Shown here: positions 9,216 to 33,544 of the stretch, in pieces | Layout of the letters: each line of letters begins with the position of its first letter | Position numbering within the stretch: the stretch's first letter is position 1 | Assembly: GCA_910583685.1 (NCBI GenBank) | Contig: CAJTXY010000001.1 | Span: 4,755 to 68,754, forward strand | From: an uncultured Bacilli bacterium | Lineage (GTDB): Bacteria > Bacillota_I > Bacilli_A > RF39 > UBA660 | Reading direction: 5' to 3' | Length of the DNA: 64,000 bases | Translations under genes and position numbers: made by a program | The notes under the pieces: generated by a model | What the model saw: only the letters and a program-made list of their open reading frames with translations | What the model was told of the DNA's origin: nothing | Database searches by the model: none

Positions 9216-10541
9216 TTAATTTAGTTGATAAACGTCAAAATATAGGACCTTATCGACCCTTTTTCCGTTTTTTATTATGTATTTTAAGACCTCTTTGTCA
9301 GTTTGAGTTGAATAGTTTAATTCTTCTTTATTGATCAAAAATAATGTGCTTTTTTTCTTTTGAATTGCTTTTATCATTTTTTTAGTTCCGTCTTTTCCCC
9401 AATTCCCCCTATTGATTAAATCTAGTTTTTCAATTCTACGATGATTACTTAATTTAAAAATATAAGATGTACTAGATAAAATTATAATGTCCTCTTCCAA
9501 ATGATTGTCACTATATTCTTTTAGTGTTTCTGCATTATGGTATTCCATAGGATTTAAATAACGGTATTCATAATTTCTAATATGATTAGGGTAGACTCCT
9601 TTCGCATTTAAGGTTACCAGCATATTTCCTATTGGAAACAAGATGATCAGCCATAAGAAAAATTTTTCTAAGTGGTAATTAAACAAAAAATCACTATGTG
9701 CTATTATTGCCGTTAGTATTATAAATAATCCCAATAAAAAGTGTAATAAATCGAAGAGTGGAAAACATATAAAATAAAAGGCCACTGCGTAAATCCACTC
9801 TGTTTCATATTTTTGTTTTCTAAAATAAAATAGGAAGGCAATCCAAATTACAATTATAGAAATAGGCCTCCATATTGCTACTGATTCTCCATTTTTGGAA
9901 AACTCAAACATTCCTAAAAAACATTGATCTATGAAATCATTGAAATTTCCTGCTAATAAAAGATATGTAAAAATAAAGAACGTGGGAATTGCTACTCCTA
10001 AACATCTTTTCTTCAATCTTTCTTTATCATTCTTTACAAGATAGCATCCGCATAATAGGATCAAAAAACCAATCGATTGTTTTGTAAATAAAATGAGGCC
10101 TAACAGGAGGCCAATTTCTAGGTCTTTGGCCTTCCTTTTTTCTGCATAAATTAAAGCTAAAACGATGCAACAACAGAGCGTATTGTAAGTTGGCAGTCCA
10201 TTGACTATTGGTAATAATATAAGTAAAAAAATAAGAATTACCGATTTTTCTTTTGTTAACTTTTCTAATAAATAACAAATTACCACCATCAGCAGTGCTT
10301 GCTCAATATGAAACATTAAAATGCCCTTATAAAAGAAAAGTCCTATTGAAAATAGGAATGAAAATACAGGTGGTACAATCATATTAAAGTCTTGGTAAGG
10401 AACGAGTCCACTTGCAATATTATAGGAAAAGCCATAACTCCACGTTTCGTCTGCTGATACTTTTCTTAAAAACAAGTAAGAAATTAAAAAGGAAAAAAAG
10501 AAAAAGATATATTTGGTTTTACTTAAAATTTTGTCTCTCAT
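9216..10541 (-). CDS. Polytopic (about 10-12 TM) membrane protein with a roughly 110-aa C-terminal soluble domain. It is embedded in the dcw operon between divIB and ftsA. Function unknown; possibly a GT-C-like glycosyltransferase or O-antigen-ligase-like protein.
   Basis: Hydrophobic segments span the first ~330 aa. It is tightly packed (4-nt gap to divIB, 37-nt gap to ftsA) and co-oriented with the dcw genes. Confidence 0.45.
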   Translation of the reverse strand: MRDKILSKTKYIFFFFSFLISYLFLRKVSADETWSYGFSYNIASGLVPYQDFNMIVPPVFSFLFSIGLFFYKGILMFHIEQALLMVVICYLLEKLTKEKSVILIFLLILLPIVNGLPTYNTLCCCIVLALIYAEKRKAKDLEIGLLLGLILFTKQSIGFLILLCGCYLVKNDKERLKKRCLGVAIPTFFIFTYLLLAGNFNDFIDQCFLGMFEFSKNGESVAIWRPISIIVIWIAFLFYFRKQKYETEWIYAVAFYFICFPLFDLLHFLLGLFIILTAIIAHSDFLFNYHLEKFFLWLIILFPIGNMLVTLNAKGVYPNHIRNYEYRYLNPMEYHNAETLKEYSDNHLEEDIIILSSTSYIFKLSNHRRIEKLDLINRGNWGKDGTKKMIKAIQKKKSTLFLINKEELNYSTQTDKEVLKYIIKNGKRVDKVLYFDVYQLN

Positions 10542-12143: not shown

Positions 12144-13223
12144 CTACTCTCCAATTACCTTCTTGATTTCTTGATAAACTTTCGTTGCGGAATCGCTAAC
12201 TCCTAAACTTTTGGTGCTTAACTTCATACTTTTATATAAACCTGTATCGTTTAAAACTTCATCGATCATAGGGATTAATGTATCTTTTGAAAAATTCTTC
12301 TCCTCTAATATTTTAGCGGCATTTATTTTTTCTAATTCTTGGGCATTTTTCATTTGATGGTTTTCTGTTACATAAGGAGATGGTACTAAGATGGAAGGAA
12401 GTCCAATTGCTGTAATTTCTGCAATGGTTGATGCTCCTGCACGTGAAACTAATAAATCTGTCTTTTTTAAGAGTTCTATTAAATTATCTATATAAGGCAG
12501 GATGGCAACATTTGATGGTACCTTAATGTTTTCGTATTCTTTATAATAATTTTTACCTGTAATTAGCACTACTTGATAAGGTTTATTTGAAAAAGCGGGA
12601 ATTAACTCCTTTAGCTTTTCTGTCATCGTTGTACTTCCTAGTGATCCCATTACAATTACTACTAATTTACGAGACTCATCTAAACCAAATTTTCTTTTAT
12701 CAATTGCTTTGGTATCTAAAATTTGTTCACTTCTTGGATTTCCTGTATAGACTGCTTTATTCCCCTCAAACTTCGTAATGGTATCAGGAAGCGATACACA
12801 AACTCGATCTACATATTTAGAGATATAGCGATTGGAAACTCCTGGTGTAGAATTTTGTTCGTGGATTAGCGTTTTATACTTTAATTTATGAGCGGCAATA
12901 ATGACAGGAGCACTAATATAGCCTCCTACTCCGACTACAATATCTGGATGAAACTTTTCTATTTCTTCTTTCGCCTTTTTGATTGCTTTTTTAAAAGTAA
13001 AATACACTGAGATATTTTTGATCAGATTTTTTCTATTAATCCCTTTCATTTCAATTCCAACGTATGGAATTTTTAATTTGGGAACAATATCTGCTTCCAT
13101 TCTATCTGTTGTTCCAATATATAAAATTTCACTACCTGGTTCTTGTTCTTTTATTTTTTCTAATATGGCAAGAGCAGGATAGATATGGCCTCCTGTTCCG
13201 CCAGCTGTTATTACAATACGCAA
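12144..13223 (-). CDS. murG: UDP-GlcNAc:undecaprenyl-PP-MurNAc-pentapeptide GlcNAc transferase
   Basis: MRIVITAGGTGGHIYPALAI is a canonical MurG N-terminus. Confidence 0.9.
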   Translation of the reverse strand: MRIVITAGGTGGHIYPALAILEKIKEQEPGSEILYIGTTDRMEADIVPKLKIPYVGIEMKGINRKNLIKNISVYFTFKKAIKKAKEEIEKFHPDIVVGVGGYISAPVIIAAHKLKYKTLIHEQNSTPGVSNRYISKYVDRVCVSLPDTITKFEGNKAVYTGNPRSEQILDTKAIDKRKFGLDESRKLVVIVMGSLGSTTMTEKLKELIPAFSNKPYQVVLITGKNYYKEYENIKVPSNVAILPYIDNLIELLKKTDLLVSRAGASTIAEITAIGLPSILVPSPYVTENHQMKNAQELEKINAAKILEEKNFSKDTLIPMIDEVLNDTGLYKSMKLSTKSLGVSDSATKVYQEIKKVIGE

Positions 13224-13289
13224 AACTCATCACATCCTTATTAATTATATCGCTAAACAAAAAGATTTATGAAAAAAAGACCGTTCGGT

Positions 13290-13889
13290 CTATTCTCCAG
13301 TTTCATAGTTGGTATGACCTTCTTGTATTGCTTTTACTTTTATTCTTCCGTGAAAATGGGTTCCCATCACCTCATTTTGAGCAGTTTCTGAAATCCATAA
13401 TCTTAGTGTATATGTTGTTTTTTCATTTGGTGCTAATATGCTTGTGTCAAACACACCCTCATTGTCCTCTAATGTACCAATCAGTGGTGTTGCTCCATTT
13501 TTACTAAAAGAATAGCGAATTGACTGCCAAGGGAGCTTTTTGTCTAGACAATTGTCTGTGGTGTATTTATCTTCATCATTTTCTAGTACGATTTGATAAT
13601 TTGCTTTTAGGGTTCCTGTGTTTTCTACAGAAAATACATAAGGTGCATTAGCAAGACCATCCGCATCTGTTACTGGTACTGCATTTTCTAAAGTAATTCC
13701 ATTTGATGCAGACTCATCTAAAGTTAATACTAAGGTACCTGTTGAGATTTTGTTTTCCTTCGTTCCGTCTTTTGAAAAGGCAAAAACTGCATATGAGACA
13801 AATATAAACATCAAAATAGCACAAATTATAAAAAATCCATTTCTAATTATTTTTTTCTTACTTTCATCCATTTTATACACTCCCATCAT
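13290..13889 (-). CDS. TasA/camelysin-family secreted protein with a SipW-cognate-type signal peptide
   Basis: Signal anchor followed by YAVFAFSKDGTKENKISTGTLVLTLDESASNGITLENAVPVTD. This aligns with the TasA/CalY region AYFSDKEVSNNTFAAGTLDL...ENSASVNLSNLKPGD. Confidence 0.65.
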   Translation of the reverse strand: MMGVYKMDESKKKIIRNGFFIICAILMFIFVSYAVFAFSKDGTKENKISTGTLVLTLDESASNGITLENAVPVTDADGLANAPYVFSVENTGTLKANYQIVLENDEDKYTTDNCLDKKLPWQSIRYSFSKNGATPLIGTLEDNEGVFDTSILAPNEKTTYTLRLWISETAQNEVMGTHFHGRIKVKAIQEGHTNYETGE

Positions 13890-13943
13890 CTATATAAATT
13901 ATATCGTTATTTTAAAAAGATGTAAAGAAAAAAACAGCGAATC

Positions 13944-14555
13944 TTATTGTGAGATTGCTGTTGCGATGTCAACTCCATTTTCCACTACTTGAATTTTCCC
14001 GTGATAATGCATATCACTATCTAATGGCAAAGTGTTGTTGGTTGTCCAAAGACGAACTGTATAAGAGATACTCGCTTTTCCTTTTAATTTACGCGATAAA
14101 ACCGTTCCATCTTTTAAATCAGATAACATAAAGATTTTGTTTTCCTCTTTTTCTTTATGGATTGCCCCTTTGATAATACTTTGTGGAATCTGGTATTCAC
14201 CACATTCATCTTCTACTATTTTCTCATTGTCTTTTACTAGTTTAATACTATAGTTTACTGGTGTTTCTAAATTATTTTTTATCGTAAAAGTATAAGCATG
14301 AGAGCTTAGGCCAACAGAGTCTGATATGGATGTTACCTTTGTAAGAGTTATGCTATCTCCTGCTTTTTCGTGAAAAGTTACTTCCAGTGATTTTGAATTA
14401 TTAACCTGATTTCTCGTATCTTTAAATTTATAATATATATAATGAGTTGCTGTTAAGGCAAAGGTTAAAATGAAAGCGATTATTAGTCCACTTTTTATCA
14501 TTTGTTTTCTATAGTATGTTAACAAAATACCCCACTCCTGTCTAAATATAATCAT
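13944..14555 (-). CDS. TasA/camelysin-family paralogue, more divergent; start uncertain
   Basis: Shares the C-terminal block with the 13290 gene (TYTLRLW...HFHG.I.V vs SYTVRLW...HYHGKIQV) and an N-terminal YYKFKDTRNQVNNS motif. GGAGTGGGG lies inside the first codons of the track ORF, so a later TTG/ATG start is likely. Confidence 0.55.
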   Translation of the reverse strand: MIIFRQEWGILLTYYRKQMIKSGLIIAFILTFALTATHYIYYKFKDTRNQVNNSKSLEVTFHEKAGDSITLTKVTSISDSVGLSSHAYTFTIKNNLETPVNYSIKLVKDNEKIVEDECGEYQIPQSIIKGAIHKEKEENKIFMLSDLKDGTVLSRKLKGKASISYTVRLWTTNNTLPLDSDMHYHGKIQVVENGVDIATAISQ

Positions 14556-14626
14556 ATATCTAGTTTTAGGCAGAAGTCAACGAAAAAGAGTTTATTTTAC
14601 AGCAATATTGTAAAAGAAAAAAACGA

Positions 14627-15409
14627 TTATAGCTCTTTTGCTGCAATCGTTCTTGTTACTACATCTTTTACATTTGCTTCATTAAATGGTTTAGCAAGCA
14701 AATCTATTATTGCATATTGTTTTACCATATCAATGACTTCTTGTGTATAAGCCCCTGTAATTACTGAAACTGGGATTTTAGGAAATAGATTATGGCTTTT
14801 AAAATATTCTAATACTCCAAAACCATTTACATTTGGCATATAAATATCAAGCAACATACAACTAATTTTTCCGTTTATATCATTTTCAATTAGCTTTAAT
14901 GCTTCTGCTCCATCTTTGGCTGTTATTACATCATAGTCGTTATTAAATATTTTCTCAACAAAGGAGATTACTACTGAGGAATCATCTACTACTAAAATTT
15001 GTTTTTCTTTTGGTCCAATTACTTCAGGAGCAACAACGGGTGCTTGATCCTCTACTCCTAAATAAAGGCTTACCACTTTCATTACCCGAGAAACTTCAGC
15101 CATTAGAGAGTCAAAATTTGCATAAACGTAATTTGAATCATTCGCTTTACTTTTCATCTCATGATCATAGGCCATATCTCCTAGTCCCATAAACCCAAAA
15201 TATCTGGCATCACTTTTTAATGAATGTACAATTATGGCATAGTTTTGCATATCAGCAGATGCTTTATAGGCTTGTAATTGTCCTATTTTTTCTTTTAAAC
15301 CTGATAGGAAGTCAGGGAGTGTTGCATTATAAGTTTCCATATCTCCAAATAATTCTAGGCTTTTATTGACATCTGCCCCATTTGTGATTAAAAAATTTAC
15401 ATCTTTCAT
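14627..15409 (-). CDS. Phosphorelay protein with an N-terminal Hpt domain and a C-terminal receiver (REC) domain; no output domain
   Basis: Hpt-like helix with a conserved His (IIVHSLKSDARYFGFMGL). C-terminal REC: ILVVDDSSVVISF...D...LLDIYMP...K. Confidence 0.6.
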   Translation of the reverse strand: MKDVNFLITNGADVNKSLELFGDMETYNATLPDFLSGLKEKIGQLQAYKASADMQNYAIIVHSLKSDARYFGFMGLGDMAYDHEMKSKANDSNYVYANFDSLMAEVSRVMKVVSLYLGVEDQAPVVAPEVIGPKEKQILVVDDSSVVISFVEKIFNNDYDVITAKDGAEALKLIENDINGKISCMLLDIYMPNVNGFGVLEYFKSHNLFPKIPVSVITGAYTQEVIDMVKQYAIIDLLAKPFNEANVKDVVTRTIAAKEL

Positions 15410-15450
15410 TCTTACACCTCGCTACTTTCAAATTCATTATATCATAAAAA

Positions 15451-17262
15451 TTATGAGTTTAAATATTTTCTTATTACTTTTTCTAGTTCTACTTTATCAA
15501 TTGGTTTTGCTAAATAATCTTGAAAACCATCTTTCAAATATTTTTCTCTCATTCCAGAAATTGCGTTTGCTGTTAAAACAACGACAGGGGTTTCGAAACC
15601 TTCAATTCCTTTTAGTTTCTTTAAAGTCTCTACTCCACTCATCTTAGGCATCATATCGTCTAGTAGTATTAAATCATATTTTTCACCTGCTAGGACTTTG
15701 TCGATTGCCTCAAATCCACTTAAAGTTTGTGTAATAGCAAGGCCATACTTTCCAAGTAACATAGAAGCTACTTTTAAATTTAATTTATTGTCGTCTACTA
15801 GTAGAACCTTCTTACCAGAAACATTTAGTGGTATATCTATTTGTGTTTCGGTTGCAACTGCTTTTTCTGCAACGATCTTCTGATCAATAGCAACAGTAAA
15901 TTTAGAACCTTTTCCGTAGACACTTTGAGCAACAATTTTACCTTTCATTAATTCTACTAATCTTTTCGTAATGGCAAGACCCAACCCTGTTCCTTCAATA
16001 GTAATATTTTTTTCTAGATCTAATCGTTCGAATTTCATAAACAGTTTATCAATTTTATCTTGTTTAATACCAATGCCACTATCTTCAACGGCAATAATTA
16101 GTCTACAAGCTTTTCCGCTTTGAATCGTACTGATTTTAAAATCAATAAAACCTTCTTTGGTATATTTAGCGGCATTGGTTAAAAGATTTAAGATAATTTG
16201 TTTTAATCTGACATAATCTCCGTATAAAACCGCGGGGACACTTTCATCTAAATGTGTTCTAAATTCAATTGGCTTTTCCCCGATCCTAGCCTTGGTCAGT
16301 AGTACGAGTTCATCAAAGACTTTATGCAAATCATACTCTGTATTTACAATTTCTAACTTATTGGCCTCAATTTTGGAAATATCAAGGATTCCATTTACAA
16401 TTTCCAATAAGTTATCAGAAGCCATTAAAATATCTCTCGCTTTTTCTTTTGTACTATCTGGTAAATCCTCTTCCGATAAGCTTTGAGAAAATCCAACAAT
16501 AGCATTTAGTGGTGTTCTAATCTCGTGGGACATACTTGATAAAAAGTCGGTCTTAGCAGCATTAGCACGTTCTGCTTGATTACGAGCAAGTTCTAGTTCT
16601 GCAATCATCTTTAAATCAGGGTTTTCAATTGTAAAGTACATCAAAAATGTGGTAAATATTTGAACTGATTGAGTAAGTACTAATGTAGGTTTTATAATTT
16701 GAATAATTCCTGAAATTAAGAACAAAACGGCATATATTAAAACTGGTAAATACTTTTTTGTTAGCAATTCTTTGATATGTAGAAGCATACAAGCTATTGA
16801 AATTAATAGGAAGGAAATGGATACTATTTTTAGTAAATCGACACTCATTCCATAGGTGTAAGAATATAGGCTTTTAGTTGGTTCAAAGTAATACTGGATT
16901 GGTAATACTAAAAAACCTACTGAACATATGATGAAAATTAGAAAAACAATTAGGCTCAATTTTTTATGATACTTTTTGTTAAACGATATTACAATAGTAT
17001 AAACTAACAATAAGCTAATCCATAATAAAATATTCACTAAAAAGAGTCTAGAGGTTATAGCGTTAAGTAAGGGGATTTTCTCCATCACCATACATGTAAA
17101 TATTTGAGATATTTCTAAAACAACACCAGTTAGAGAGACGACAATTAAGCGTTGATAAATTCTATTTTCTAAAGTTTTAAGTCTTTTTTTTGAAAAAAAT
17201 ACAATCACCAAAAGGACAATATAAACTAGGCTAGTTAACGAAAAATATATATTATAATTCAC
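15451..17262 (-). CDS. Hybrid sensor histidine kinase (about 6 TM N-terminus, HisKA, HATPase_c, C-terminal REC)
   Basis: H-box MSHEIRTPLNAIVGFSQ; G-boxes DSGIGI/GTGLGLAI. C-terminal receiver: KKVLLVDDNKLN...LILLDDMMPKMSG...VVVLTANA. Confidence 0.8.
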   Translation of the reverse strand: MNYNIYFSLTSLVYIVLLVIVFFSKKRLKTLENRIYQRLIVVSLTGVVLEISQIFTCMVMEKIPLLNAITSRLFLVNILLWISLLLVYTIVISFNKKYHKKLSLIVFLIFIICSVGFLVLPIQYYFEPTKSLYSYTYGMSVDLLKIVSISFLLISIACMLLHIKELLTKKYLPVLIYAVLFLISGIIQIIKPTLVLTQSVQIFTTFLMYFTIENPDLKMIAELELARNQAERANAAKTDFLSSMSHEIRTPLNAIVGFSQSLSEEDLPDSTKEKARDILMASDNLLEIVNGILDISKIEANKLEIVNTEYDLHKVFDELVLLTKARIGEKPIEFRTHLDESVPAVLYGDYVRLKQIILNLLTNAAKYTKEGFIDFKISTIQSGKACRLIIAVEDSGIGIKQDKIDKLFMKFERLDLEKNITIEGTGLGLAITKRLVELMKGKIVAQSVYGKGSKFTVAIDQKIVAEKAVATETQIDIPLNVSGKKVLLVDDNKLNLKVASMLLGKYGLAITQTLSGFEAIDKVLAGEKYDLILLDDMMPKMSGVETLKKLKGIEGFETPVVVLTANAISGMREKYLKDGFQDYLAKPIDKVELEKVIRKYLNS

Positions 17263-17333
17263 AATATCACACTTCTTTATCTTTATATATTCAAATTATA
17301 CCACGCAAAAAAAAGTACTGCAACAAGTACTTT

Positions 17334-19208
17334 TTATCTCGACTTAGAAAAAGCTTTCGCTTGTTCCGTAATAATTCCTTTAGTAGCAACATAATCTCTT
17401 TGTAATGCCATTGTATCAATTTTTCCAACAGATGTAAGTGGCATAGAATCTTTGAAAACGATATCAACTGGGTAAGTATAATCGGGTAAATTTTCTTTAA
17501 TTAGTGAATATAATTCTTCTTTAATTGTTTCTTCCATCCCTTGATTACGATATTGTTCTTCTAAAACAGAAACAACAACAGGTGCATTTCCTTCTGTCAC
17601 ACTTGGTACTCCGATTGCAGAGCAACTTTGAACACAAGGGTATTTGCTTACTACATTTTCTAAAACAGATGGGAAAACTTTATAACCACTACGAATAATC
17701 ATACGTTTAATACGATCCTGATGATATACTTGTCCATCTTCTGCAACATAACCAATATCTTGCGAGTGAAGCCAAACTTTTCCATCTTTGTGAACTTTTA
17801 ACATATCGTCTGTTGCTTCTTGATTATTATAATAGCCTAGCATAACGGTTGGTCCAGTAATACATAATTCTCCTAATTCTCCATAACTTTTTTCCTCACC
17901 TGTTTCTGGGTCAAATGCAGAAACAGAATTTCGTGGAAGTGGTAACCCTACACTACCAATGCTATTAATAATATCACTGGAAACTGTTGCACAGGCAGCA
18001 CATTCTGTTAAACCATAACCTTTTTTTATAATACGACCATTATGCTTTAACATAAATCTGTCTAGTTCCAATTCTTTTTCTTTTTTCATAGCATCTCCAC
18101 CTACAATATAACTAACACCATATTCTAAATTGAGATTTTTCATAATTCTATTTTCCATCAAGGAATCAAAGTATGCAGGAACACCTAAACATATTTCTGG
18201 TTTTTCTTTGGCAATTAATTCTGGGAACTTTTCTTGATCCATTTTAGGAATTAGATTAGATACCCACCCTTTTGAAACTGCTGTATGAATTCCATTTACG
18301 GCACCATATGCAACAAATGGAACTAAAACATTTAAAAACTTACGATGTCTCTGTAAGTCAACGTGTACATAATCCAAACCATCAACCATAGCGTTCATAT
18401 TTTCGTTAGTTAGCATAACACCTTTTGGTGTTCCAGTTGTTCCACCAGTATGAACGATACAAGCAGGTTGATTAGCTTTAAACTCTGCATCTTCTACTTT
18501 CGAGATATCTCGTCCGGCTTTTATAAAATTATGCCAATTTATAAATGTATCATCATATTTTACAGATGGTATAGCACCCTTTTTTTGGTCTACATAATCT
18601 TTCAAGTTTTTTGCTTGCTTTAGGCCAAATGGAAGTGAATCATTTGGTGATAATACAACTACTTTTTCTATTTCAGTTTTTGGAATTGCATTCTTAACAA
18701 CATCATAACAAAGATTTAGCATTAGCATATATTTAGAATGCACTTCGTTTAAATAATCTGTCACTCCAATCTTTGTAGTTCTTGGGTCAATCATATTAGG
18801 AATTGCATTCATTTTGTTTAATGCATAAAATGAATAGATTAGTTCTGGACTATTAACAGACATAATCGTTACGATATCATTTTCTTTAACTCCTAGTTTA
18901 GAAAAAGCTTTTTGTGTTTCGTCAATTTTTTCAAAAAACTCTCTATAGGTGATATTTCTACCAAAATATTGTAAAACGATATCATTTAGATATGGCTGAT
19001 TTCTTTCTTTCATATATTGATAGGCATTAACTTTGGGTAATTCTGTTTCATACGATTCCTTTGGGAACCATCTTAAGTGTGGTTTGTCGATAGATGGCTT
19101 TCCTGTTAGTTTTTTACTTTCTTCGTGATTTACTACATATTTTTCTGAATCTTTCAATGTTGATTCATTTACTACTAATTCTTTCATTAGAACCTCCATA
19201 TTTTTCAA
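17334..19208 (-). CDS. AMP-dependent synthetase/ligase (acyl-CoA synthetase family)
   Basis: AMP-binding signature IVHTGGTTGTPKGVML, 624 aa. Confidence 0.8.
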   Translation of the reverse strand: MKNMEVLMKELVVNESTLKDSEKYVVNHEESKKLTGKPSIDKPHLRWFPKESYETELPKVNAYQYMKERNQPYLNDIVLQYFGRNITYREFFEKIDETQKAFSKLGVKENDIVTIMSVNSPELIYSFYALNKMNAIPNMIDPRTTKIGVTDYLNEVHSKYMLMLNLCYDVVKNAIPKTEIEKVVVLSPNDSLPFGLKQAKNLKDYVDQKKGAIPSVKYDDTFINWHNFIKAGRDISKVEDAEFKANQPACIVHTGGTTGTPKGVMLTNENMNAMVDGLDYVHVDLQRHRKFLNVLVPFVAYGAVNGIHTAVSKGWVSNLIPKMDQEKFPELIAKEKPEICLGVPAYFDSLMENRIMKNLNLEYGVSYIVGGDAMKKEKELELDRFMLKHNGRIIKKGYGLTECAACATVSSDIINSIGSVGLPLPRNSVSAFDPETGEEKSYGELGELCITGPTVMLGYYNNQEATDDMLKVHKDGKVWLHSQDIGYVAEDGQVYHQDRIKRMIIRSGYKVFPSVLENVVSKYPCVQSCSAIGVPSVTEGNAPVVVSVLEEQYRNQGMEETIKEELYSLIKENLPDYTYPVDIVFKDSMPLTSVGKIDTMALQRDYVATKGIITEQAKAFSKSR

Positions 19209-19538
19209 TTTATTTTTCCTATAAACTGCATCAGGAATTAATTATATTCTATACCAAAACGATAGGATAAGCAAATAAATTATGTAAAGCAAATAAGTAT
19301 AACATAAAGTTATATAGGCAATATAAGAAACAACACTTGATTTTCTTCGTTTTTTGGTACCTATATGAACACTTTATTTAATGAGTGAGAGAAATAAAAA
19401 ATGTAGAAAAAACTCAATATTATTTAGGAAAGAAATCGAGTATTTATTGATTTCTTTTCTTATATCAGAACATAGTATCCCTAATATTGACAAAAGTGTT
19501 GGTTTATAATTTAATAATTGCTAAAAAGGAGATACTTT

Positions 19539-20447
19539 ATGACTAATATTAATAAATCTATTGAAATTGCAAAGAATTTAATACTAACCGGCGAAGGCAA
19601 GGAAAAGTATATGCTATACCCTTATGCAACAGAAAATTTAGTTGGTCTATTTCATCAAATTGATGTATCTGGAAAAGACTGTCTTACTATTAATGGAAGT
19701 TTTGACCAAAGTCTAGATATGGCTTTGATGGGTGCTAAATCAGTTACAGCATTTGATATTAACCCATTATCTATTCCTTATGCTGAATTAAAAATGGCGC
19801 TTATTCTAACAGGCTACCGAAAAGAAATTTATTTTGGATTTTTAAATGGATACTATGATGTTTTAGAAAGTCTCGCCTTTCACCCAACAGTTTTTGAATA
19901 TATGAAGAAAAACATCTCTGAGTCTTCCCTAGTATTTTGGCAAGAAATGTTTCAAAACTTTGACAAGCGACAAATTTGTCAAAAACTTTTCTTTGATGGA
20001 TACCATTTTTCAGAGCAAAAAGATTTTGTAAATTATATGCAAGATGATAACTACACGAAATTACAAGGAATGTTACCCAATACCAATATCCAATTATTAG
20101 AATGTAATATTAGGGTATTACCAAATATGTTAAACAAAAGCTTCGACATTATACATTTTTCTAATATTATTGGATATCAAGATACAATGTATGAAGGAAA
20201 AAACAGAGAAGAAAAATTATATACTTACAAAGATTTGCTAGAAACTTATAGTCACTTTTTAAATAAAGACGGAAAAATTATTTCTTACATTTATGACCCT
20301 TTCAACAATCAAGGATGTGACGAGGTTCCAATTTTTGATAAAGACTTAAGAGATAAAATTTTTTCGGGAGACCAATATAGTTATATTTATTTTCCTGCAT
20401 ACTTTTCTGATGCAAAAGATGGATGTTTAATTTATACGAAAAAATAG
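19539..20447 (+). CDS. DUF3419 / BtaA-like SAM-binding protein
   Basis: DCLTINGSFDQSLDMALMGAKSVTAFDINPLSIPYAELKMALI matches the DUF3419 (BtaA-like) SAM-binding N-terminal block. The start is set at the ATG preceded by AAAGGAG rather than the track's TTG. Confidence 0.5.
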   Translation: MTNINKSIEIAKNLILTGEGKEKYMLYPYATENLVGLFHQIDVSGKDCLTINGSFDQSLDMALMGAKSVTAFDINPLSIPYAELKMALILTGYRKEIYFGFLNGYYDVLESLAFHPTVFEYMKKNISESSLVFWQEMFQNFDKRQICQKLFFDGYHFSEQKDFVNYMQDDNYTKLQGMLPNTNIQLLECNIRVLPNMLNKSFDIIHFSNIIGYQDTMYEGKNREEKLYTYKDLLETYSHFLNKDGKIISYIYDPFNNQGCDEVPIFDKDLRDKIFSGDQYSYIYFPAYFSDAKDGCLIYTKK

Positions 20448-20612
20448 AAATGGTAAAACTATCACTTCTATTTTCCTTATAATAATTGATTCGAAAAATT
20501 GTTCTTGAAATTCTGATAATGCTCTAATTTGTTCATCTGTATAATCTTTCTCACTAGGTGCCACTACTAACTTGTCATTATTATCATTTGTTCTATGAAT
20601 ATATGCAATCAC
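20427..20612 (-). CDS. Possible small protein (61 aa) whose start overlaps the Nudix stop
   Basis: 4-nt ATGA overlap with the upstream Nudix gene stop on the same strand. No homology recognised. It overlaps the 3' end of the convergent plus-strand gene. Confidence 0.25.
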   Translation of the reverse strand: MIAYIHRTNDNNDKLVVAPSEKDYTDEQIRALSEFQEQFFESIIIRKIEVIVLPFLFFRIN

Positions 20613-21055
20613 TTTTCATTTTCTATCTTCTTTAACTTTTCTATCACGTACCATAAAAGTGGTGAAGTATTTTCTCCTGTTAACTTGTCCATTTTAACCC
20701 ATACGGCGTCATCAGAATCGATACAGTCATCCCCACTTTTGATTCTAGACTCTTTTATTTCTACTTTATATAAAATGCCGATTCGTTGTAGGTCTTCTTG
20801 CGTAAATCTATTTATCTTCCACTTAACATTGACACTCGCCGTATCCCAAAGTTTTGCTTTTAACACCTCTGCCCCTAATTCTTCTTTACATTCTCTATAT
20901 AAAGCATCGATTGGATTTTCGTTATGTTCAATTCCACCACCTGGCAAATCATATTTTCCCTTGTCACCACCATACGCTTTTTTAATTAATGCTATTTTTT
21001 CTTCTTTTTCAATGATTGCATATGCACCAACTAATGTTTTTCTAACGATTCTCAT
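20609..21055 (-). CDS. NUDIX hydrolase
   Basis: Nudix box GGGIEHNENPIDALYRECKEELG. Confidence 0.8.
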   Translation of the reverse strand: MRIVRKTLVGAYAIIEKEEKIALIKKAYGGDKGKYDLPGGGIEHNENPIDALYRECKEELGAEVLKAKLWDTASVNVKWKINRFTQEDLQRIGILYKVEIKESRIKSGDDCIDSDDAVWVKMDKLTGENTSPLLWYVIEKLKKIENEK

Positions 21056-21963
21056 TTCTTCTCCTCCTCTGCTCCTTTAAAAATTTGTTTTATAATCTCT
21101 ACTCTTTTTTCATCAGGAATCCCAAAGCCACTTGCTTTTTTATGACCTCCACCCCCAAGGGTAGTTGCTAACTCCGCTAAATCTACATTATCCTTTTGTG
21201 TTCTAAGACTTACTCCTCCGCCAACATTTATCATTGCAATAAAATCAAGCTCTGGATGTGCATTTTGAAGCAGCATTCCAAGTTCACTGCGATAATTCTC
21301 TGCGAAAACAACACCGACTTTATAATTCTGATAAGTAAAAGTCAGCAATTGTTCATTTTTTCTTTCGAAGTATCGTTTGATTCTACTTTCCTCAATTTCC
21401 AAGATCTCTTCCTCTGTATTGGTGATTATAGGGACACCTTCATCATTTAAATTCTTAACAAAGTGATCAATATAGCCTAGATTCCCATATATTTCAAATA
21501 AGTCTCCTAATCTTTTGGCAGTAAAATCTTTCTTTGTAACCCAATGCCATAAATCAAGATTTTTTACACATTCTACATAATCATTTATTTTAGACGTGTT
21601 TAATTGTTCGTTGTTTGTTTTTAAATAATGATAAAACAAGGACGTTGCACATTCATTGATATCTAATGTAACAAATGGGTATTTAGAAGCATACTGCTGA
21701 CTAATATGATGGTCGAAGACACAAAATTTTTCTTTCCAGGATTGCTTTTCTATCCATTCATAAAGTTCTTCACTAAGAGATAAGTCTGTCACATAAATAT
21801 GTTCATAATTATCTAAATCTTCTTTAAGTAAAAGAGAAACTTTCTCTTCTACTTCTTCTATTTCTAATAAGTGAAAATCGACATCTCTTTTCAATAACTT
21901 TAATAAAATTACAGGACTTACCCCATCTACATCCTTTGCATGTGTTATGATCATATCTTTCAT
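21052..21963 (-). CDS. DHH/DHHA1 phosphoesterase (NrnA-like nanoRNase / pAp phosphatase family)
   Basis: Motifs DVDG, VTDLS, VFDHH and a C-terminal GGGGH (DHHA1). Confidence 0.7.
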   Translation of the reverse strand: MKDMIITHAKDVDGVSPVILLKLLKRDVDFHLLEIEEVEEKVSLLLKEDLDNYEHIYVTDLSLSEELYEWIEKQSWKEKFCVFDHHISQQYASKYPFVTLDINECATSLFYHYLKTNNEQLNTSKINDYVECVKNLDLWHWVTKKDFTAKRLGDLFEIYGNLGYIDHFVKNLNDEGVPIITNTEEEILEIEESRIKRYFERKNEQLLTFTYQNYKVGVVFAENYRSELGMLLQNAHPELDFIAMINVGGGVSLRTQKDNVDLAELATTLGGGGHKKASGFGIPDEKRVEIIKQIFKGAEEEKK

Positions 21964-22222
21964 CTTTTTACCTCTTTTCTTTTGATTTACTTATTTTTTT
22001 GACACCTACTTTTCCATCATAATCGTCATAATAGAAAAACCAATACTTTTTACCCTTTCTCTTATCCATATGTTATTTCCACTTTTTGTCTTATGTTCGT
22101 CATAAATAAAATACTCCCTACTTATTTATCTTCTATTTAGTATTATATCATACTGCAATCCTTTCTAAAAATTATTTTCTTACTTTATCAACTGCAATAA
22201 GTCTATTAAATATTTTTTATCA

Positions 22223-23311
22223 TTACTTGCTTTCCCTTGAAATATTAAGGAGAATCCCCATACTGACCATACTAATTAACAAGCTACTTCCGCCATAACT
22301 TAAAAATGGTAAAGTTACACCTGTTACAGGAATTAGTCCAACGACAACCATTAAGTTCATAAGGGACTGAAAAATGATTTGAAACACCATACCAAATGCT
22401 AGGTATTTCGGAAATTCCTCTTTTGCATTTAATGCAATTTTAATACCACGATATAAAAGGAGAACAAAAAGTCCACATACGATTACTACTCCCATCACAC
22501 CAAACTCCTCTGAAATGATAGAAAAAATAAAATCTGTCTGTGGTTCAGGCAAATAGAAATGTTTCTGAATGGAATTCAAATAACCATTTCCTAAAAGACC
22601 ACCTGGTCCTATTGCATAAAGAGACTGAATAATTTGAAATCCTGTTCCTAGTGCGTCACTCCAAGGATCTACGAATGAAGTAATTCTATCCATTCTATAA
22701 GGTGCAATGATGATTAAAATAACAATACCGATAATGCCTATTGCTCCACATCCCATAAAAAACTTCATATTCACTCCTGCAATAAAAAGAAGAGAAACGA
22801 TGGAAACCACTAAAATTACGCCTGTTCCTAGGTCTGGTTGTAGCATAATGAGGCCAAAGAAGAAAAGTGTTACTCCAAGTATGGGAAAGACACCGTCTTT
22901 TAAACTTTTTAAAAACTTATTACTCTTTTCTAGATACTTGCTTGTAAAAATAATAAGGCCTAATTTCGCAAACTCACTTGGCTGAATTCCTAAGGAACCA
23001 ATTCCAAACCAGCTTCTACTACCATTACGAATGCTACCAATTCCCGGAATTAGAACTAAAACCAAAAGGATCAAACAAATTAGCAAAATTAGATTGGATT
23101 TTTCTTTGTAAATAGAATAATGAATTTTGGAAATAGACATCATAATAAAAATACCCACCGCCAAAAAGATCGCCTGATACTTAATATAATGAAAACTATC
23201 ATGAAATTTATATTCTGCCCAAATACTAGAGGCAGAGTAGATCATAATCAGACCAAATACTGCTAATGTAATTACGGTTATAAATAAGGTTTTATCCAGT
23301 CCTCTTTTCAT
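22223..23311 (-). CDS. ftsW: SEDS-family peptidoglycan glycosyltransferase (FtsW/RodA/SpoVE)
   Basis: Ten TM helices, QPSEFAKL motif, and a C-terminal GGSSL-like block. Confidence 0.85.
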   Translation of the reverse strand: MKRGLDKTLFITVITLAVFGLIMIYSASSIWAEYKFHDSFHYIKYQAIFLAVGIFIMMSISKIHYSIYKEKSNLILLICLILLVLVLIPGIGSIRNGSRSWFGIGSLGIQPSEFAKLGLIIFTSKYLEKSNKFLKSLKDGVFPILGVTLFFFGLIMLQPDLGTGVILVVSIVSLLFIAGVNMKFFMGCGAIGIIGIVILIIIAPYRMDRITSFVDPWSDALGTGFQIIQSLYAIGPGGLLGNGYLNSIQKHFYLPEPQTDFIFSIISEEFGVMGVVIVCGLFVLLLYRGIKIALNAKEEFPKYLAFGMVFQIIFQSLMNLMVVVGLIPVTGVTLPFLSYGGSSLLISMVSMGILLNISRESK

Positions 23312-27899: not shown

Positions 27900-28508
27900 T
27901 TACTTTCCTCCTTTTAATTGTACTGCTGAATAATCAACGGTCACTACCTGTTTTGATATTTCATTTTTCTCTTGATATTCATAATAAGGAATTTCTTGAT
28001 TATGATAAACTAGATTATCTCCCTTATACTTCACAATCAGCTTATAATAGGTATTTTTTCCCTCATTAGGTGCTTTTACTGTTTCTAATTTTATTTCATT
28101 TAAAGTTCTTTTTCCCGTTAAGTCAATCTCTTCATAAGTGCCTTCTTCCCCGCTCTTAGCATATAAGCCAACGATTTCAAAATCAGTGGCAACTGAAATG
28201 GAAAGCACGAAGAAAACACTTACTTCAAATTCCGTAGAGGCTTTGAAATAATAAGGGATTTCAGTGGCTGGACGATAGTGTCCTGCCTCACAAATCTCCT
28301 CACCTTCTCCAGGATTACATCCATCTACATTAAAGTAGTCAATATCGATATTGAACTTTGCTACACGTGCTGAAGATTCGCTACTAAGCATAGAAACATA
28401 TTTAGAATAAGTTACTACTGTGGTAAATAGTAATAAAACTCCAATATACATTCCTAAATAACGATAGAATTTTCTTCTGAAATGTTCATTATGAAATAAA
28501 TTTTTCAC
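27900..28508 (-). CDS. Small secreted protein with a SipW-cognate-like N-terminal motif (TasA/camelysin-like substrate candidate)
   Basis: TM anchor, then YSKYVSMLSSESSARVAKFNIDI. It shares the [ST]YAKY...SARVA[KV][FW] motif with the 32125 gene. It sits immediately downstream of a sipW. Confidence 0.5.
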   Translation of the reverse strand: MKNLFHNEHFRRKFYRYLGMYIGVLLLFTTVVTYSKYVSMLSSESSARVAKFNIDIDYFNVDGCNPGEGEEICEAGHYRPATEIPYYFKASTEFEVSVFFVLSISVATDFEIVGLYAKSGEEGTYEEIDLTGKRTLNEIKLETVKAPNEGKNTYYKLIVKYKGDNLVYHNQEIPYYEYQEKNEISKQVVTVDYSAVQLKGGK

Positions 28509-28514
28509 AGATAA

Positions 28515-29174
28515 TCACCCTCTTCGTTGTTTTCTTTTGGCCCTCTTCTTTCTTTTTTTATTTTTTTTATTCTTTTTTATTGAAGTAGTTAGAATTTCCT
28601 TTTTTGCACTTATTTTCTTTCGGCTTTCATTTGGATTTTCTAAATACTTTAAAAACTCTTGATATTCTTTAGTATCCGCTAACACAACTTCTTCGTTTGG
28701 CATTGTCAAATAAGAAATGGTAGCTATGAGTGTAATTATTATAATCACGATCAGTGGATTTTTTAACAGAGCAATCACTTTCCCTGCTCCTCTTATATGA
28801 AAGATATATTTTCCAACAATTTTGTCCTTTTTTGTTTTGCCATCTTCTGTATGATTATGGTCTCCTTTTGTTATCACTGCTTCTTTTTCGGCGGCAACAA
28901 TACGATGGGTTACAAAACTTCCTTCCTTATCATAAAAAGTGATAATATCATCTTTTTTATACTTTTTGTCTTTCATATCAATAATGATATAATCACTTTT
29001 TTGCAAGGTCGGTTCCATAGAAGATGATACGACTTCTAACATTGCATAACCAAAAAATGGAGCAAGCGGTTTTTTCAATATCTTGAAACAGACAAAATTA
29101 TAAATATTTATTAAAATAATTAAAGTCAGGAAAAGGCCACTAAATATTACGGTTATTTTTCTGAATCTTTTCAT
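28515..29174 (-). CDS. sipW: SipW-type signal peptidase I (archaeal/ER Sec11-like, S26B) with a highly basic C-terminal tail
   Basis: FGYAMLEVVSSSMEPTLQKSDYIIID...THRIV...TKGDHN matches SipW/Sec11 catalytic boxes. C-terminal KKNKKNKKRKKRAKRKQRRG tail. Confidence 0.8.
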   Translation of the reverse strand: MKRFRKITVIFSGLFLTLIILINIYNFVCFKILKKPLAPFFGYAMLEVVSSSMEPTLQKSDYIIIDMKDKKYKKDDIITFYDKEGSFVTHRIVAAEKEAVITKGDHNHTEDGKTKKDKIVGKYIFHIRGAGKVIALLKNPLIVIIIITLIATISYLTMPNEEVVLADTKEYQEFLKYLENPNESRKKISAKKEILTTSIKKNKKNKKRKKRAKRKQRRG

Positions 29175-29183
29175 TTTTCCCTC

Positions 29184-32030: not shown

Positions 32031-32124
32031 TTTATTCGCATCCTTTCTTAATATTTAAGTTTCAAATAAACCTACGAGTTATTTTTCATAGGCTTATTTG
32101 GAAGTTAAATAAACTTCCACTTTA

Positions 32125-32835
32125 TTATTTAGTTGGTTTCTTTTCAGATTGAACAACATCAATCTTAACGCTAAGTGTAACATTTGCTTGTGCTCCTGTT
32201 GAACCATCTTTAGCAATACCATTTCCTAAATTAGTATCTTCTGCGTCATCACCATCGATAACCCATTCCCAACCGATTACATAAGTATGGTTAGGAGCAG
32301 TATTTGCTGCGTAAACTCCATTAAGCTCAGATCCAATTCCATTGATTAAGGCATTAATGTCGTTGTACTTTTCAGCATCAGTAAAGGCAAGAGATTGGAA
32401 TGTAGCTCCTGTTAGAGTTTGTCCAGTTACATCTCTTAGATAATATTTCATTTGACCATTACCTTTTGTAGTAATTTCATCAACTGAAGAATTATCGCTT
32501 ACTGTTAATTCATAGTTTGTTTCTGGTTTATTTTCACCTAAAGTGAATGTATAAATTCCAGAAGTACCTGGTGCTACCACTTTATCAGTACCATTTGCAG
32601 ATTCAACATCAACAGCATTATCTTGTCCTGCTAATGTAGTAGTATAAGATGCTGCAAATAAATTGATTTCGATTTCCTTATCGTTTTCAAATCCCCAAAC
32701 GGCAACACGTGCAGAATCAGTGAAAGAAAAATCTCCCACATATTTTGCATAAGTACCACTTACAGAATAACTAGTAATACCAACAAGTGCTAACAATGCA
32801 CAAAGAACTGTCATTTTCTTTTTCATCATTGTCAC
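32125..32835 (-). CDS. Secreted protein with a SipW-cognate-like N-terminal motif (TasA/camelysin-like substrate candidate)
   Basis: Signal then SGTYAKYVGDFSFTDSARVAVWGF, where GTYAKY resembles the GTFAYF motif of the SipW-cognate class. Immediately downstream of the second sipW. Confidence 0.55.
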   Translation of the reverse strand: MTMMKKKMTVLCALLALVGITSYSVSGTYAKYVGDFSFTDSARVAVWGFENDKEIEINLFAASYTTTLAGQDNAVDVESANGTDKVVAPGTSGIYTFTLGENKPETNYELTVSDNSSVDEITTKGNGQMKYYLRDVTGQTLTGATFQSLAFTDAEKYNDINALINGIGSELNGVYAANTAPNHTYVIGWEWVIDGDDAEDTNLGNGIAKDGSTGAQANVTLSVKIDVVQSEKKPTK

Positions 32836-32890
32836 CTCCTTTCTTAGATGTCATTTATATGTAAACCCTATAAAAGGTGTTTACCAGTAA

Positions 32891-33544
32891 TTATTTATTT
32901 TGCTTTGACTTTTTAGAATTCTTATTTTTTTCCTTTGTTTCTTGTTGTTCTCTCATTTTCTTAAATTCTAAAAACTCCTGACGTTCTCTTTCTCTTTCTT
33001 TTTTCGTAGAAATAGAAAAGCCAATTACAAATATTAAGGTAATTCCTAAAAATACTATAATAATAGTTGTTGGTTCTGCCAAACTATTCATAATAGAACC
33101 AATACTTGGAAATCTAGCAATATAAAGCCCTTCTACATCGCTAAATTCGACTAGATTTTTATCCTGTGCTGAGTTATTGTCACCTTTTGTAATAAAATAC
33201 TTCTCTCCATCTTCTTCTACAATATCAATGATACGATGGGTCGTAACAGTATTTTCAGCATCACGGAAAGCGATGACATCTTCCTTTTTTAGTGTTTTGG
33301 GATTTACCATTTTAGTTAGTACTAAATCACCTTTATGTATTTTGGTCTCCATTGAATTAGAAAGAACAATAAATGGTTTATACCCAAATACATTTGGCAC
33401 CTTGTCCTTGTTAATTTTTGACTGAACCATAATATATAAGTTCATAATTAAAATAGGCACCAATAGTAAGCATATTACAACAAAAATGATATTGCTTATT
33501 TTTTGATACCATACTTTTGATTTTTCATTTTCCATACTAATCAC
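32891..33544 (-). CDS. sipW: SipW-type signal peptidase I (second copy) with a charged C-terminal tail
   Basis: FGYKPFIVLSNSMETKIHKGDLVL...THRII...TKGDNN. C-terminal KKERERERQEFLEFKKMREQQETKEKNKNSKKSKQNK tail. Confidence 0.8.
   Translation of the reverse strand: MISMENEKSKVWYQKISNIIFVVICLLLVPILIMNLYIMVQSKINKDKVPNVFGYKPFIVLSNSMETKIHKGDLVLTKMVNPKTLKKEDVIAFRDAENTVTTHRIIDIVEEDGEKYFITKGDNNSAQDKNLVEFSDVEGLYIARFPSIGSIMNSLAEPTTIIIVFLGITLIFVIGFSISTKKERERERQEFLEFKKMREQQETKEKNKNSKKSKQNK

Follow-up and report, generated by a model that had tools for sequence, protein, structure and literature searches.

A predicted subunit and anchor pair of β-sandwich paralogs upstream of murG in uncultured gut Bacilli with a TasA-like N-terminal design and a C-terminal signature of its own

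The window analyzed here, a 64,000-nucleotide stretch of contig CAJTXY010000001.1 from an uncultured Bacilli bacterium, carries two adjacent minus-strand genes, ORF A and ORF B (ORF, open reading frame), next to murG. Here, we tentatively propose that ORF A, as a cleaved and exported subunit, and ORF B, as its membrane-anchored paralog, belong to a divergent and unnamed branch of the TasA/BsaA superfamily, in which ORF A possibly polymerizes and ORF B serves as a base or nucleator. Members of this superfamily have a SipW-type signal ahead of a β-sandwich. The locus is not a textbook TasA system. It appears to represent a large family not covered by current models, with a TasA-like leader and first strands, a distinct C-terminal signature, and an anchor-type and a subunit-type member placed side by side.

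In the mechanical ORF call, ORF A spans 13290..13889 (199 amino acids) and ORF B spans 13944..14555 (203 amino acids). Both starts are probably wrong, because of the positions of the ribosome-binding sites (RBSs) and the lengths of the homologs, and the real starts are probably ATG at 13871 and TTG at 14525, giving 193 amino acids each. The former codon is preceded by a GGGAG RBS and the latter by an AGGAG RBS with a 9-nucleotide spacer, and the mechanical ATG of ORF B (14555) falls inside a −10 box. Homologs of ORF A are 191 to 195 amino acids long (189–195 for the two families together), and homolog N-termini read MDE... and MLTYYRKQ..., the latter being the start of P0029 of the ORF B family. 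As revised, ORF A (13290..13871) consists of an N-terminal hydrophobic segment, a signal-peptidase-type S-Y-A site, and a β-sandwich domain, whereas ORF B (13944..14525) consists of a transmembrane helix, a conserved juxtamembrane block, and a β-sandwich. The former is the faster-evolving paralog, and the latter is slower-evolving and more widespread. BLASTP aligned the two proteins with 27% identity over 176 residues (E = 5e-21), and by this comparison they are true paralogs, in agreement with the preliminary description of the sequence. Searches of the window with tblastn and the family hidden Markov models (HMMs) found no copies beyond these two. Hundreds of conserved homologs and confident folds rule out a chance ORF or a noncoding artifact.

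The predicted signal peptide of ORF A (M7–A34; 13788..13871, minus strand) ends in S-Y-A, and hhalign places this segment on the T-W-A site of TasA, where cleavage would be expected. The N-terminal string quoted in the preliminary description, AFSKDGTKENKISTGTLVLTLDES, was found in ORF A as given. Tyr33 and Ala34 are nearly invariant in the ORF A family alignment (A1), whose motif can be written as [SAT]-Y-A, 16 residues, and TGTL.LTLDES. This SYA-16-GTL pattern is that of the TasA/BsaA superfamily in the broad sense, a small-aromatic-Ala site at a fixed spacing from GTL, and ORF B lacks it. The intervening residues 35 to 50 (VFAFSKDGTKENKIST; 13740..13787, minus strand) are in hhalign register with the donor strand of TasA (residues 28–38) (PMC9674648) and the following linker, and may function as a donor strand. 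Residues 38 to 47 are the sole internal segment with a predicted local distance difference test (pLDDT) value below 50 in the AlphaFold2 monomer model of ORF A, and residues 28 to 38 of BsaA are likewise disordered in monomer models; this parallel was counted in favor of a donor-strand-like segment.

The preliminary description assigned both proteins to the TasA/camelysin family and recommended an HMM search, and the assignment held in part. The Pfam model PF12389 (Peptidase_M73) gave a weak N-terminal match to ORF A (14.0 bits, E = 0.044, residues 18–104), but the score is under the gathering cutoff of 22.5, and ORF B had no match. TIGR04088, which describes the SipW-cognate signal, was listed for neither protein even at E ≤ 10, although HMMER filters may drop very weak matches to so short a model, and it matched none of 59 superfamily members at E ≤ 1e-3. 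The wording “textbook” for the SipW-cognate N-terminus of ORF A was thus too strong. PF12389 was weakly touched by 6 of the 22 members of the ORF A-family alignment at E ≤ 0.1 (best 1.1e-5) and by 7 of the 59 sampled family members (best 4e-5), and by none of the 32 ORF B-family members, which had only weak generic Ig-like matches.

As a TasA/CalY reference, a 30-member alignment was built from named PF12389 proteins. The TasA sequence used is identical to those of Protein Data Bank (PDB) entries 8aur and 5of1 over residues 28 to 261, and its mature N-terminus was checked against 8aur. Among the 195 ORFs of the window, ORF A was the sole match to the TasA-family HMM (E = 5.7e-4, 13 bits). Comparison of the ORF A family with the TasA family by hhalign gave 72.6% (E = 3.2e-5), and a profile of 142 superfamily modules gave 91.7% (E = 7.6e-7). 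The combined ORF A and ORF B profile gave 3.6%, and the ORF B family alone aligned to the single TasA sequence with E = 0.2. The aligned region was always the first ~80 columns, which comprise the signal peptide, the small-aromatic-Ala site, GTL.L, L.N..P, and F.x.N.G, with the ORF A motif in register with T-W-A|AFND...GTLDL and F.F.N.GSL of TasA. As in the TasA/CalY proteins (PF12389; 5OF1 and 8AUR), the signal peptide of ORF A ends in small-aromatic-Ala and is followed, in the same register, by the GTL.L strand ~14 to 16 residues on, the L.N..P turn, and the F.x.N.G strand. From these alignments, the N-terminal resemblance of ORF A to TasA appears to be real but marginal, and none is detectable for ORF B.

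The C-terminal part points to a different affiliation. The shared block noted in the preliminary description is present as TYTLRLW...HFHG in ORF A (13347..13415, minus strand) and as SYTVRLW...HYHG in ORF B (YTVRLW...HYHG, 13998..14063, minus strand). Tyr160, Leu164, and Trp165 are invariant and Phe179 and Gly181 nearly so in the ORF A family alignment, as are Arg168, Trp170, His183, and His185 (invariant) and Tyr165 and Gly186 (nearly invariant) in the ORF B family. Its attribution to the TasA family, however, did not stand, because the block was found in 0 of 30 TasA-family proteins and hhalign of the C-terminal regions gave E ~0.5. A spacing common to the last strand of TasA and the HFHG...AIQ segment of ORF A (N-x3-G-x10-A-x-Q) was dropped on the same hhalign result. 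In alignment-free motif counts comparing the 142 superfamily modules with the 30 TasA-family proteins, R.W...H.H[GA] occurred in 81 of the modules and a Cys in the mature part in 88, versus 0/30 in each case for the TasA family. When TasA-like spacing to GTL was also required, the [GSTA][YFW]A site was present in 81/142 modules and 26/30 TasA-family proteins. Two further motifs were counted in the modules only: [GSTA][YFW]A within the first 70 residues (106/142) and the ORF B-type T[HYN]xIY block (17/142). Judging from these patterns, the C-terminal block is the hallmark of a separate, unmodeled family.

That family is large. An exhaustive HMM search with the combined profile retrieved 4834 representative clusters at E ≤ 1e-3, of which 2663 were at E ≤ 1e-10. 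Among the 59 sampled members, no Pfam or NCBIfam library model covered the module itself. The best 148 representatives were divided almost equally into stand-alone proteins (76, ≤230 amino acids) and longer proteins of up to ~2100 amino acids with the module at the N-terminus (72). The C-terminal regions in the 59 sampled members matched BspA-type leucine-rich repeats, DUF285/PARCEL, Flg_new, Laminin_G_3, and Big_2, and are labeled adhesin-like by NCBIfam; these adhesin-type regions point to surface display. The word-indexed search found 25 homologous clusters for ORF A and 173 for ORF B, none with a name or Pfam domain, and ten clusters that were checked for names in the sources had none. The published superfamily is similarly broad: TasA/BsaA proteins are very divergent, tandem paralogs are common, some members occur in Coprobacillaceae, and an iterative HMM search collected 2172 superfamily proteins, of which only 632 are in the camelysin family (PMC11580942, PMC7395162).

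Several (near-)invariant residues lie in the predicted extracytoplasmic domains, namely the His-x-His-Gly motif, one Cys, and acidic residues (Cys114, His178, and His180 of ORF A, within ~13347..13550; Asp116, Cys118, His62, His183, and His185 of ORF B). They may form a site for a metal or ligand or lock subunits together, as their conservation suggests.

ORF B differs from ORF A mainly around the membrane. Where ORF A has the S-Y-A site and the segment equivalent to the donor strand, ORF B has a juxtamembrane block, A-T-H-Y-I-Y-Y-K-F-K-D (14418..14450, minus strand), which is A-T-[HY]-x-I-Y-Y-K-F-K-D in the family, with Thr37, Ile40, and Tyr41 invariant and Ala33 and Phe44 nearly invariant. 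No cleavage-type motif was found in ORF B, and small residues are absent at −1 and −3 of the block, which was modeled as a confident helix (pLDDT ~95). ORF B is 54 to 75% identical to its orthologs versus 48 to 58% for ORF A and is the more conserved of the two in every shared locus, as expected for an embedded anchor compared with an exposed subunit. From the distribution of the two, ORF A looks like a lineage-specific duplicate in which the ancestral state, the cleavable N-terminus usual in the wider family, was kept. The distant ORF B homologs, in many genomes, lack an adjacent ORF A, and their neighbors are an unrelated yceD-like gene and rpmF. In two such loci (L015, 8579..9257; L016, 8592..9288), the ORF B homolog is directly upstream of a gene of 155 to 160 amino acids without a Pfam match and rpmF. 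This gene was tested as a hidden paralog and found to be unrelated; the classical yceD–rpmF position suggests a very divergent YceD/DUF177 protein.

A structural prediction was advised in the preliminary description. AlphaFold2 with the family alignments gave models with pLDDT of 80 for ORF A (core >90) and 84 for ORF B, and both consist of an N-terminal helix followed by a β-sandwich of approximately nine strands. The best Foldseek match of ORF A was the archaeal bundling pilin AbpA (PDB ID: 7UEG; probability 0.99, E = 1.4e-3), with a template modeling (TM) score of 0.31 to 0.34 and ~11% identity, and CanA/CanX and chaperone–usher pilins were also among the matches. The predicted fold would suit a donor-strand subunit and is mildly suggestive of one, but it is not diagnostic.

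The pair is located upstream of murG (12144..13223, minus strand), not downstream as had been stated, since every gene concerned is transcribed from the minus strand. In the direction of transcription, ftsW (22223..23311) is followed by five unrelated genes, a histidine kinase gene, an Hpt-receiver gene, ORF B, ORF A, murG, murB, divIB, a membrane protein gene, ftsA, and ftsZ. The preliminary description placed the pair between the division and cell wall (dcw) block and a phosphorelay; the phosphorelay is indeed alongside, but the pair is within the interrupted dcw cluster, between ftsW and murG, together with the phosphorelay and five other genes. The ftsW–murG interval (13224..22222) is a ~9-kb insertion into this cluster, which contains genes for a DHHA1 protein, a NUDIX protein, a DUF3419-like protein (plus strand), an AMP-binding enzyme, the hybrid kinase, the Hpt-receiver protein, ORF B, and ORF A. 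Its content varies among relatives, with a sigma factor, an epimerase, and FemAB found in locus L001.

The order ORF B–ORF A–murG–murB is kept in every related locus that has both genes (L001, L002, and L004–L012). In L013, whose MurG is 58% identical, an A-type gene is directly upstream of murG with pnp on its other side and no ORF B. The hybrid kinase (15451..17262, minus strand) has a polytopic N-terminus and HisKA, HATPase, and REC domains, and the neighboring protein (14627..15409, minus strand) has Hpt and REC domains, the former scoring 22.1 bits, just under its cutoff. Together they form a phosphorelay with no recognizable output domain in the neighborhood. The kinase and the Hpt-receiver gene are directly upstream of the pair in the closer clade only (L004, L005, and L008–L012). 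In L001 and L002, FemAB, epimerase, and sigma factor genes replace them.

Transcription signals were predicted around both genes. A sigma-70-like promoter precedes ORF A (13898..13926, minus strand; TTTACA-17-TATAAT, 11/12 consensus matches), and its hexamers and spacing recur in L001, L004, L008, L009, L010, and L011. Directly after the ORF A stop codon is a terminator-like hairpin (AGACCGAACGGTCT) with a run of seven T residues (13271..13291, minus strand), followed by a promoter-like −10 box and an RBS for murG. A hairpin with a T-run is found at the same position in L004, L008, L009, L011, and L013, and the stems and loops differ in sequence among relatives yet stay paired. L010 has a weak hairpin only (−2.7 kcal/mol), and L001 has a weak fold (−4.2 kcal/mol) before the T-run. 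ORF B has a consensus-like predicted promoter of the sigma-70 type (14551..14580, minus strand; TTGACT-18-TATGAT). An imperfect hairpin, CAGCAATC...GATTCGCTG, with a run of seven T residues overlaps its stop codon (13928..13960, minus strand); it reads as terminator-like, but a simple terminator scanner did not call it. Its equivalent, a CAGCGA...TCGCTG hairpin with a T-run, occurs in L004, L008, L009, and L011. Based on these signals, ORF A is probably a separate, strongly expressed transcription unit. The conserved promoter- and terminator-like elements argue against an operon with the phosphorelay or murG, and an abundant structural protein would typically have signals of this kind, with a promoter near consensus, a good RBS, and a terminator, all kept in relatives.

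As to processing, two genes for SipW-type enzymes, assigned to signal peptidase I of the SipW/archaeal type, are encoded 14.6 and 19.0 kb away from the pair, within the 14 to 19 kb given in the preliminary description. The first (28515..29174, minus strand) scored 73.9 bits with TIGR02228 (cutoff 51.85), and the second (32891..33544, minus strand) scored 100.9 bits with this model and 101 bits with the Bacillus SipW equivalog (cutoff 190). Both are candidate enzymes for ORF A, although they are unlinked to it, and each is among unrelated neighbors of its own. No SipW homolog was found in the flanks of the pair (up to ~10 kb, less on short contigs) in L001 to L014.

Here, we propose how the pair may work. 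ORF A would be produced from its own strong promoter, exported by the Sec pathway, and cut after S-Y-A by a type I signal peptidase, most obviously one of the two unlinked SipW-type candidates. The cut would release the N-terminal segment equivalent to the donor strand of TasA. ORF B, which appears to have lost the cleavage site and to keep its transmembrane helix and conserved juxtamembrane segment, would stay in the membrane as a tethered base or nucleator. ORF A, as the exposed and possibly polymerizing partner, would interact with it. The outcome would be a sortase-free surface structure, by analogy with TapA/TasA or BsaB/BsaA.

This proposed system shares some features with known ones. 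As with TasA and CalY, SipW-type peptidases are encoded in the same genome. Unlike TasA (~234 amino acids), the mature domain of ORF A is only ~160 amino acids with a score under the Pfam threshold, the C-terminal halves are dissimilar, and the locus has no sipW, no tapA, and an ORF B without a cleavage site. TapA is a cleaved SipW substrate and not a paralog of the whole TasA domain, whereas ORF B is a full-length paralog with a retained transmembrane helix; its likeness to TapA is therefore a functional analogy of the proposed role only. TapA is a minor, cell-associated partner of TasA that gives the first donor strand and tethers the fiber (PMC9674648). Another parallel, by description only, is the sipW-bsaABCRSD system of Clostridium perfringens, in which BsaA and BsaB are tandem ~20- to 23-kDa paralogs with remote TasA homology and a two-component system is in the neighborhood. 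BsaA polymerizes whereas BsaB only dimerizes, and BsaA oligomers are membrane-anchored and sortase-independent (PMC11580942, PMC7395162). The present pair differs in that sipW is not adjacent and each gene has its own promoter- and terminator-like signals instead of belonging to a sipW-driven operon. In addition, a conserved N-E-K isopeptide triad as in BsaA (Asn of the donor strand, catalytic Glu, and acceptor Lys) is not evident in ORF A. Asn46 (KEN.I..GTL), the equivalent of the triad Asn, is common in the family consensus, but no conserved Lys was found at the F.V.x.N.G position across the ORF A family, where the residue varies among Glu, Arg, Lys, and Gln. The ORF B family, for its part, has near-invariant Lys93 and His62/Glu63. 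AbpA (7UEG) and the Pyrodictium proteins CanA and CanX, which were among the Foldseek matches of ORF A, are chaperone-free donor-strand polymers related to TasA (PMC9245690; bioRxiv 10.1101/2024.12.30.630787). They are, however, archaeal proteins with different signal types, and the TM scores are low (0.31–0.34).

If the proposal is correct, the design of TasA, a signal peptide followed by a donor strand, would reach far past the annotated camelysin/TasA family into a very large and unmodeled set of surface proteins of uncultured gut Bacilli, many of them with adhesin domains, and a pair of cleavable and noncleavable paralogs would be a simple model of fiber nucleation and tethering without sortase or TapA. 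A model could also be built for the ~4800 protein clusters that Pfam and NCBIfam do not yet cover, and the H-x-H-G/Cys signature provides a concrete and testable distinction between this branch and TasA. A further extension of the proposal is quite unlikely as a whole: ORF B-type proteins would be dedicated anchors in the membrane, and their invariant juxtamembrane segment (T-H-x-I-Y-Y-K-F-K-D) would supply the first donor strand, which would nucleate ORF A fibers and keep them on the cell and, more generally, keep there the thousands of adhesin-fused modules, as a means of donor-strand-based and sortase-independent display in uncultured gut Bacilli. The H-x-H/Cys site might then serve as a metal-dependent lock.

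A number of observations weigh against the subunit and anchor proposal. Neither protein reaches the PF12389 cutoff or matches TIGR04088 or any other NCBIfam model. A search of PDB sequences with the family profile found no TasA or CalY chain, only nonsignificant cadherin matches. When the signal peptides were removed from the 142-module profile, the hhalign value against the TasA family fell to 24% over 49 columns, and part of the ~92% therefore stems from signal-peptide composition. The C-terminal block showed no similarity to the TasA C-terminus (E ~0.5), and the near-invariant H-x-H-G and Cys residues are unexplained by a purely structural role in a fiber. The hydrophobic segment of ORF A comprises 22 residues with no helix breaker before S-Y-A and might be an uncleaved anchor. 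Finally, the many genomes that have ORF B without an adjacent ORF A indicate that ORF B is able to function without ORF A.

In the strongest of the alternatives, which is somewhat unlikely, both proteins would be nonpolymerizing bitopic envelope proteins, each with an uncleaved anchor and an extracytoplasmic Ig-like domain, and with a housekeeping role in peptidoglycan synthesis, division, or binding of a metal or ligand via the conserved H-x-H motif, Cys, and Asp, the TasA-like N-terminus being convergent or a relic. The steady place next to murG would then reflect an envelope role. Every locus with an A-type gene has it directly before murG (MurG 58–82% identical) while the upstream flank varies, and several lineages have ORF B between ftsW and murG or close to ftsW. 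The conservation of ORF B is near that of ftsA and the kinase in four of the six loci; it falls ~20 points short of the kinase in L010 and exceeds it by ~20 in L012. Transmembrane and juxtamembrane residues of ORF B are invariant, the hydrophobic stretch of ORF A has the length of a transmembrane helix, and H-x-H-G, invariant in ORF B and conserved in ORF A, recurs in 81/142 modules, as does the Cys in 88/142, neither being found in TasA. However, the [GSTA]-[YFW]-A site in 106/142 modules, with TasA-like GTL spacing in 81/142, is hard to explain without cleavage, and one half of the family carries fused adhesin-type domains. The conserved terminator parts ORF A from murG and leaves no operon link, and distant ORF B homologs are beside yceD-like genes and rpmF, not dcw genes. 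None of the libraries scanned gave a match to a metal-binding or division family.

The view of the preliminary description, that the pair are bona fide TasA/CalY (Peptidase_M73) fiber subunits and that the phosphorelay switches on production of a biofilm matrix, is improbable. It draws on the subthreshold PF12389 match of ORF A (E = 0.044) with weak matches in some relatives, on the codirectional kinase and Hpt-receiver genes just upstream, which the closer clade keeps, and on the bsa operon of C. perfringens as a precedent for two-component control (PMC7395162). The scores are nevertheless under the family cutoffs, ORF B has no match, and TasA does not share the C-terminal block. Regulation by the phosphorelay is further disfavored by the separate promoter- and terminator-like signals of ORF A and ORF B, by the lack of a Pfam-detectable DNA-binding output domain in the Hpt-receiver protein, and by the absence of the kinase and regulator from L001, L002, and L013, where the pair or the A-type gene still adjoins murG.

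Least probable of all is a type IV pilin-like or archaellin-like protein, in which a prepilin peptidase would process a class III signal ahead of the hydrophobic helix and the helix would drive filament assembly: the architecture of a hydrophobic N-terminal helix and a β-sandwich, one family member matching Pfam Arch_flagellin (E = 3e-4), and another ~1.4 kb from PilC-like and prepilin-peptidase-like genes fit it, but Gly at −1 and Glu at +5 are not conserved, the residue before the helix varies among Gly, Ser, Glu, Leu, and Gln in both families, the conserved motif is after the helix, not before it, and no pilus assembly ATPase or platform gene is near the pair in the window or the syntenic loci.

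The member near pilus-like genes is in L014 (1215..5531), where a 213-amino acid protein is encoded ~1.4 kb downstream of the PilC/GspF-like and prepilin-peptidase-like genes, with a DnaD-like gene between; these were assigned by eye from the translations. In C. perfringens, type IV pilus genes are required for the secretion of BsaC (PMC11580942), and the adjacency in L014 may or may not be meaningful.

The genes around the SipW-type peptidases form a set of their own (27900..33544, minus strand). Each peptidase gene is followed by a gene for a small, secreted-looking protein, of 236 (...GTYAKYVGDFSFTDSARVAVW) and 202 amino acids (...VTYSKYVSMLSSESSARVAKF), respectively, with a shared and distinct N-terminal motif, and the region also encodes a 948-amino acid cadherin-like/Big_2 protein and a 533-amino acid protein without a family. 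The two small proteins were considered as members of the ORF A/ORF B family and rejected, since no protein in this region matched the family or TasA HMM. They are probably the real cognate SipW substrates, and the gene set may be a separate surface or matrix system.

Between divIB and ftsA, the window encodes a 441-amino acid polytopic membrane protein (9216..10541, minus strand) with no Pfam family. At the equivalent position in L001 (13344..17370) are three tandem genes for proteins of 453, 445, and 445 amino acids, without Pfam matches. The 441-amino acid protein may be an unrecognized dcw-associated protein of the lineage.

The window sequence is identical to a contig of the metagenome-assembled genome (MAG) GCA_949948905.1. 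The MAGs of the relatives are labeled uncultured Bacilli or Tenericutes and derive from the gut of mice and rabbits. The L008 contig (CAZWXX010000044.1), on which the order of kinase, regulator, ORF B, ORF A, murG, and murB is complete, is in a MAG labeled “uncultured Muribaculaceae” (Bacteroidota), where it is probably a binning contaminant.

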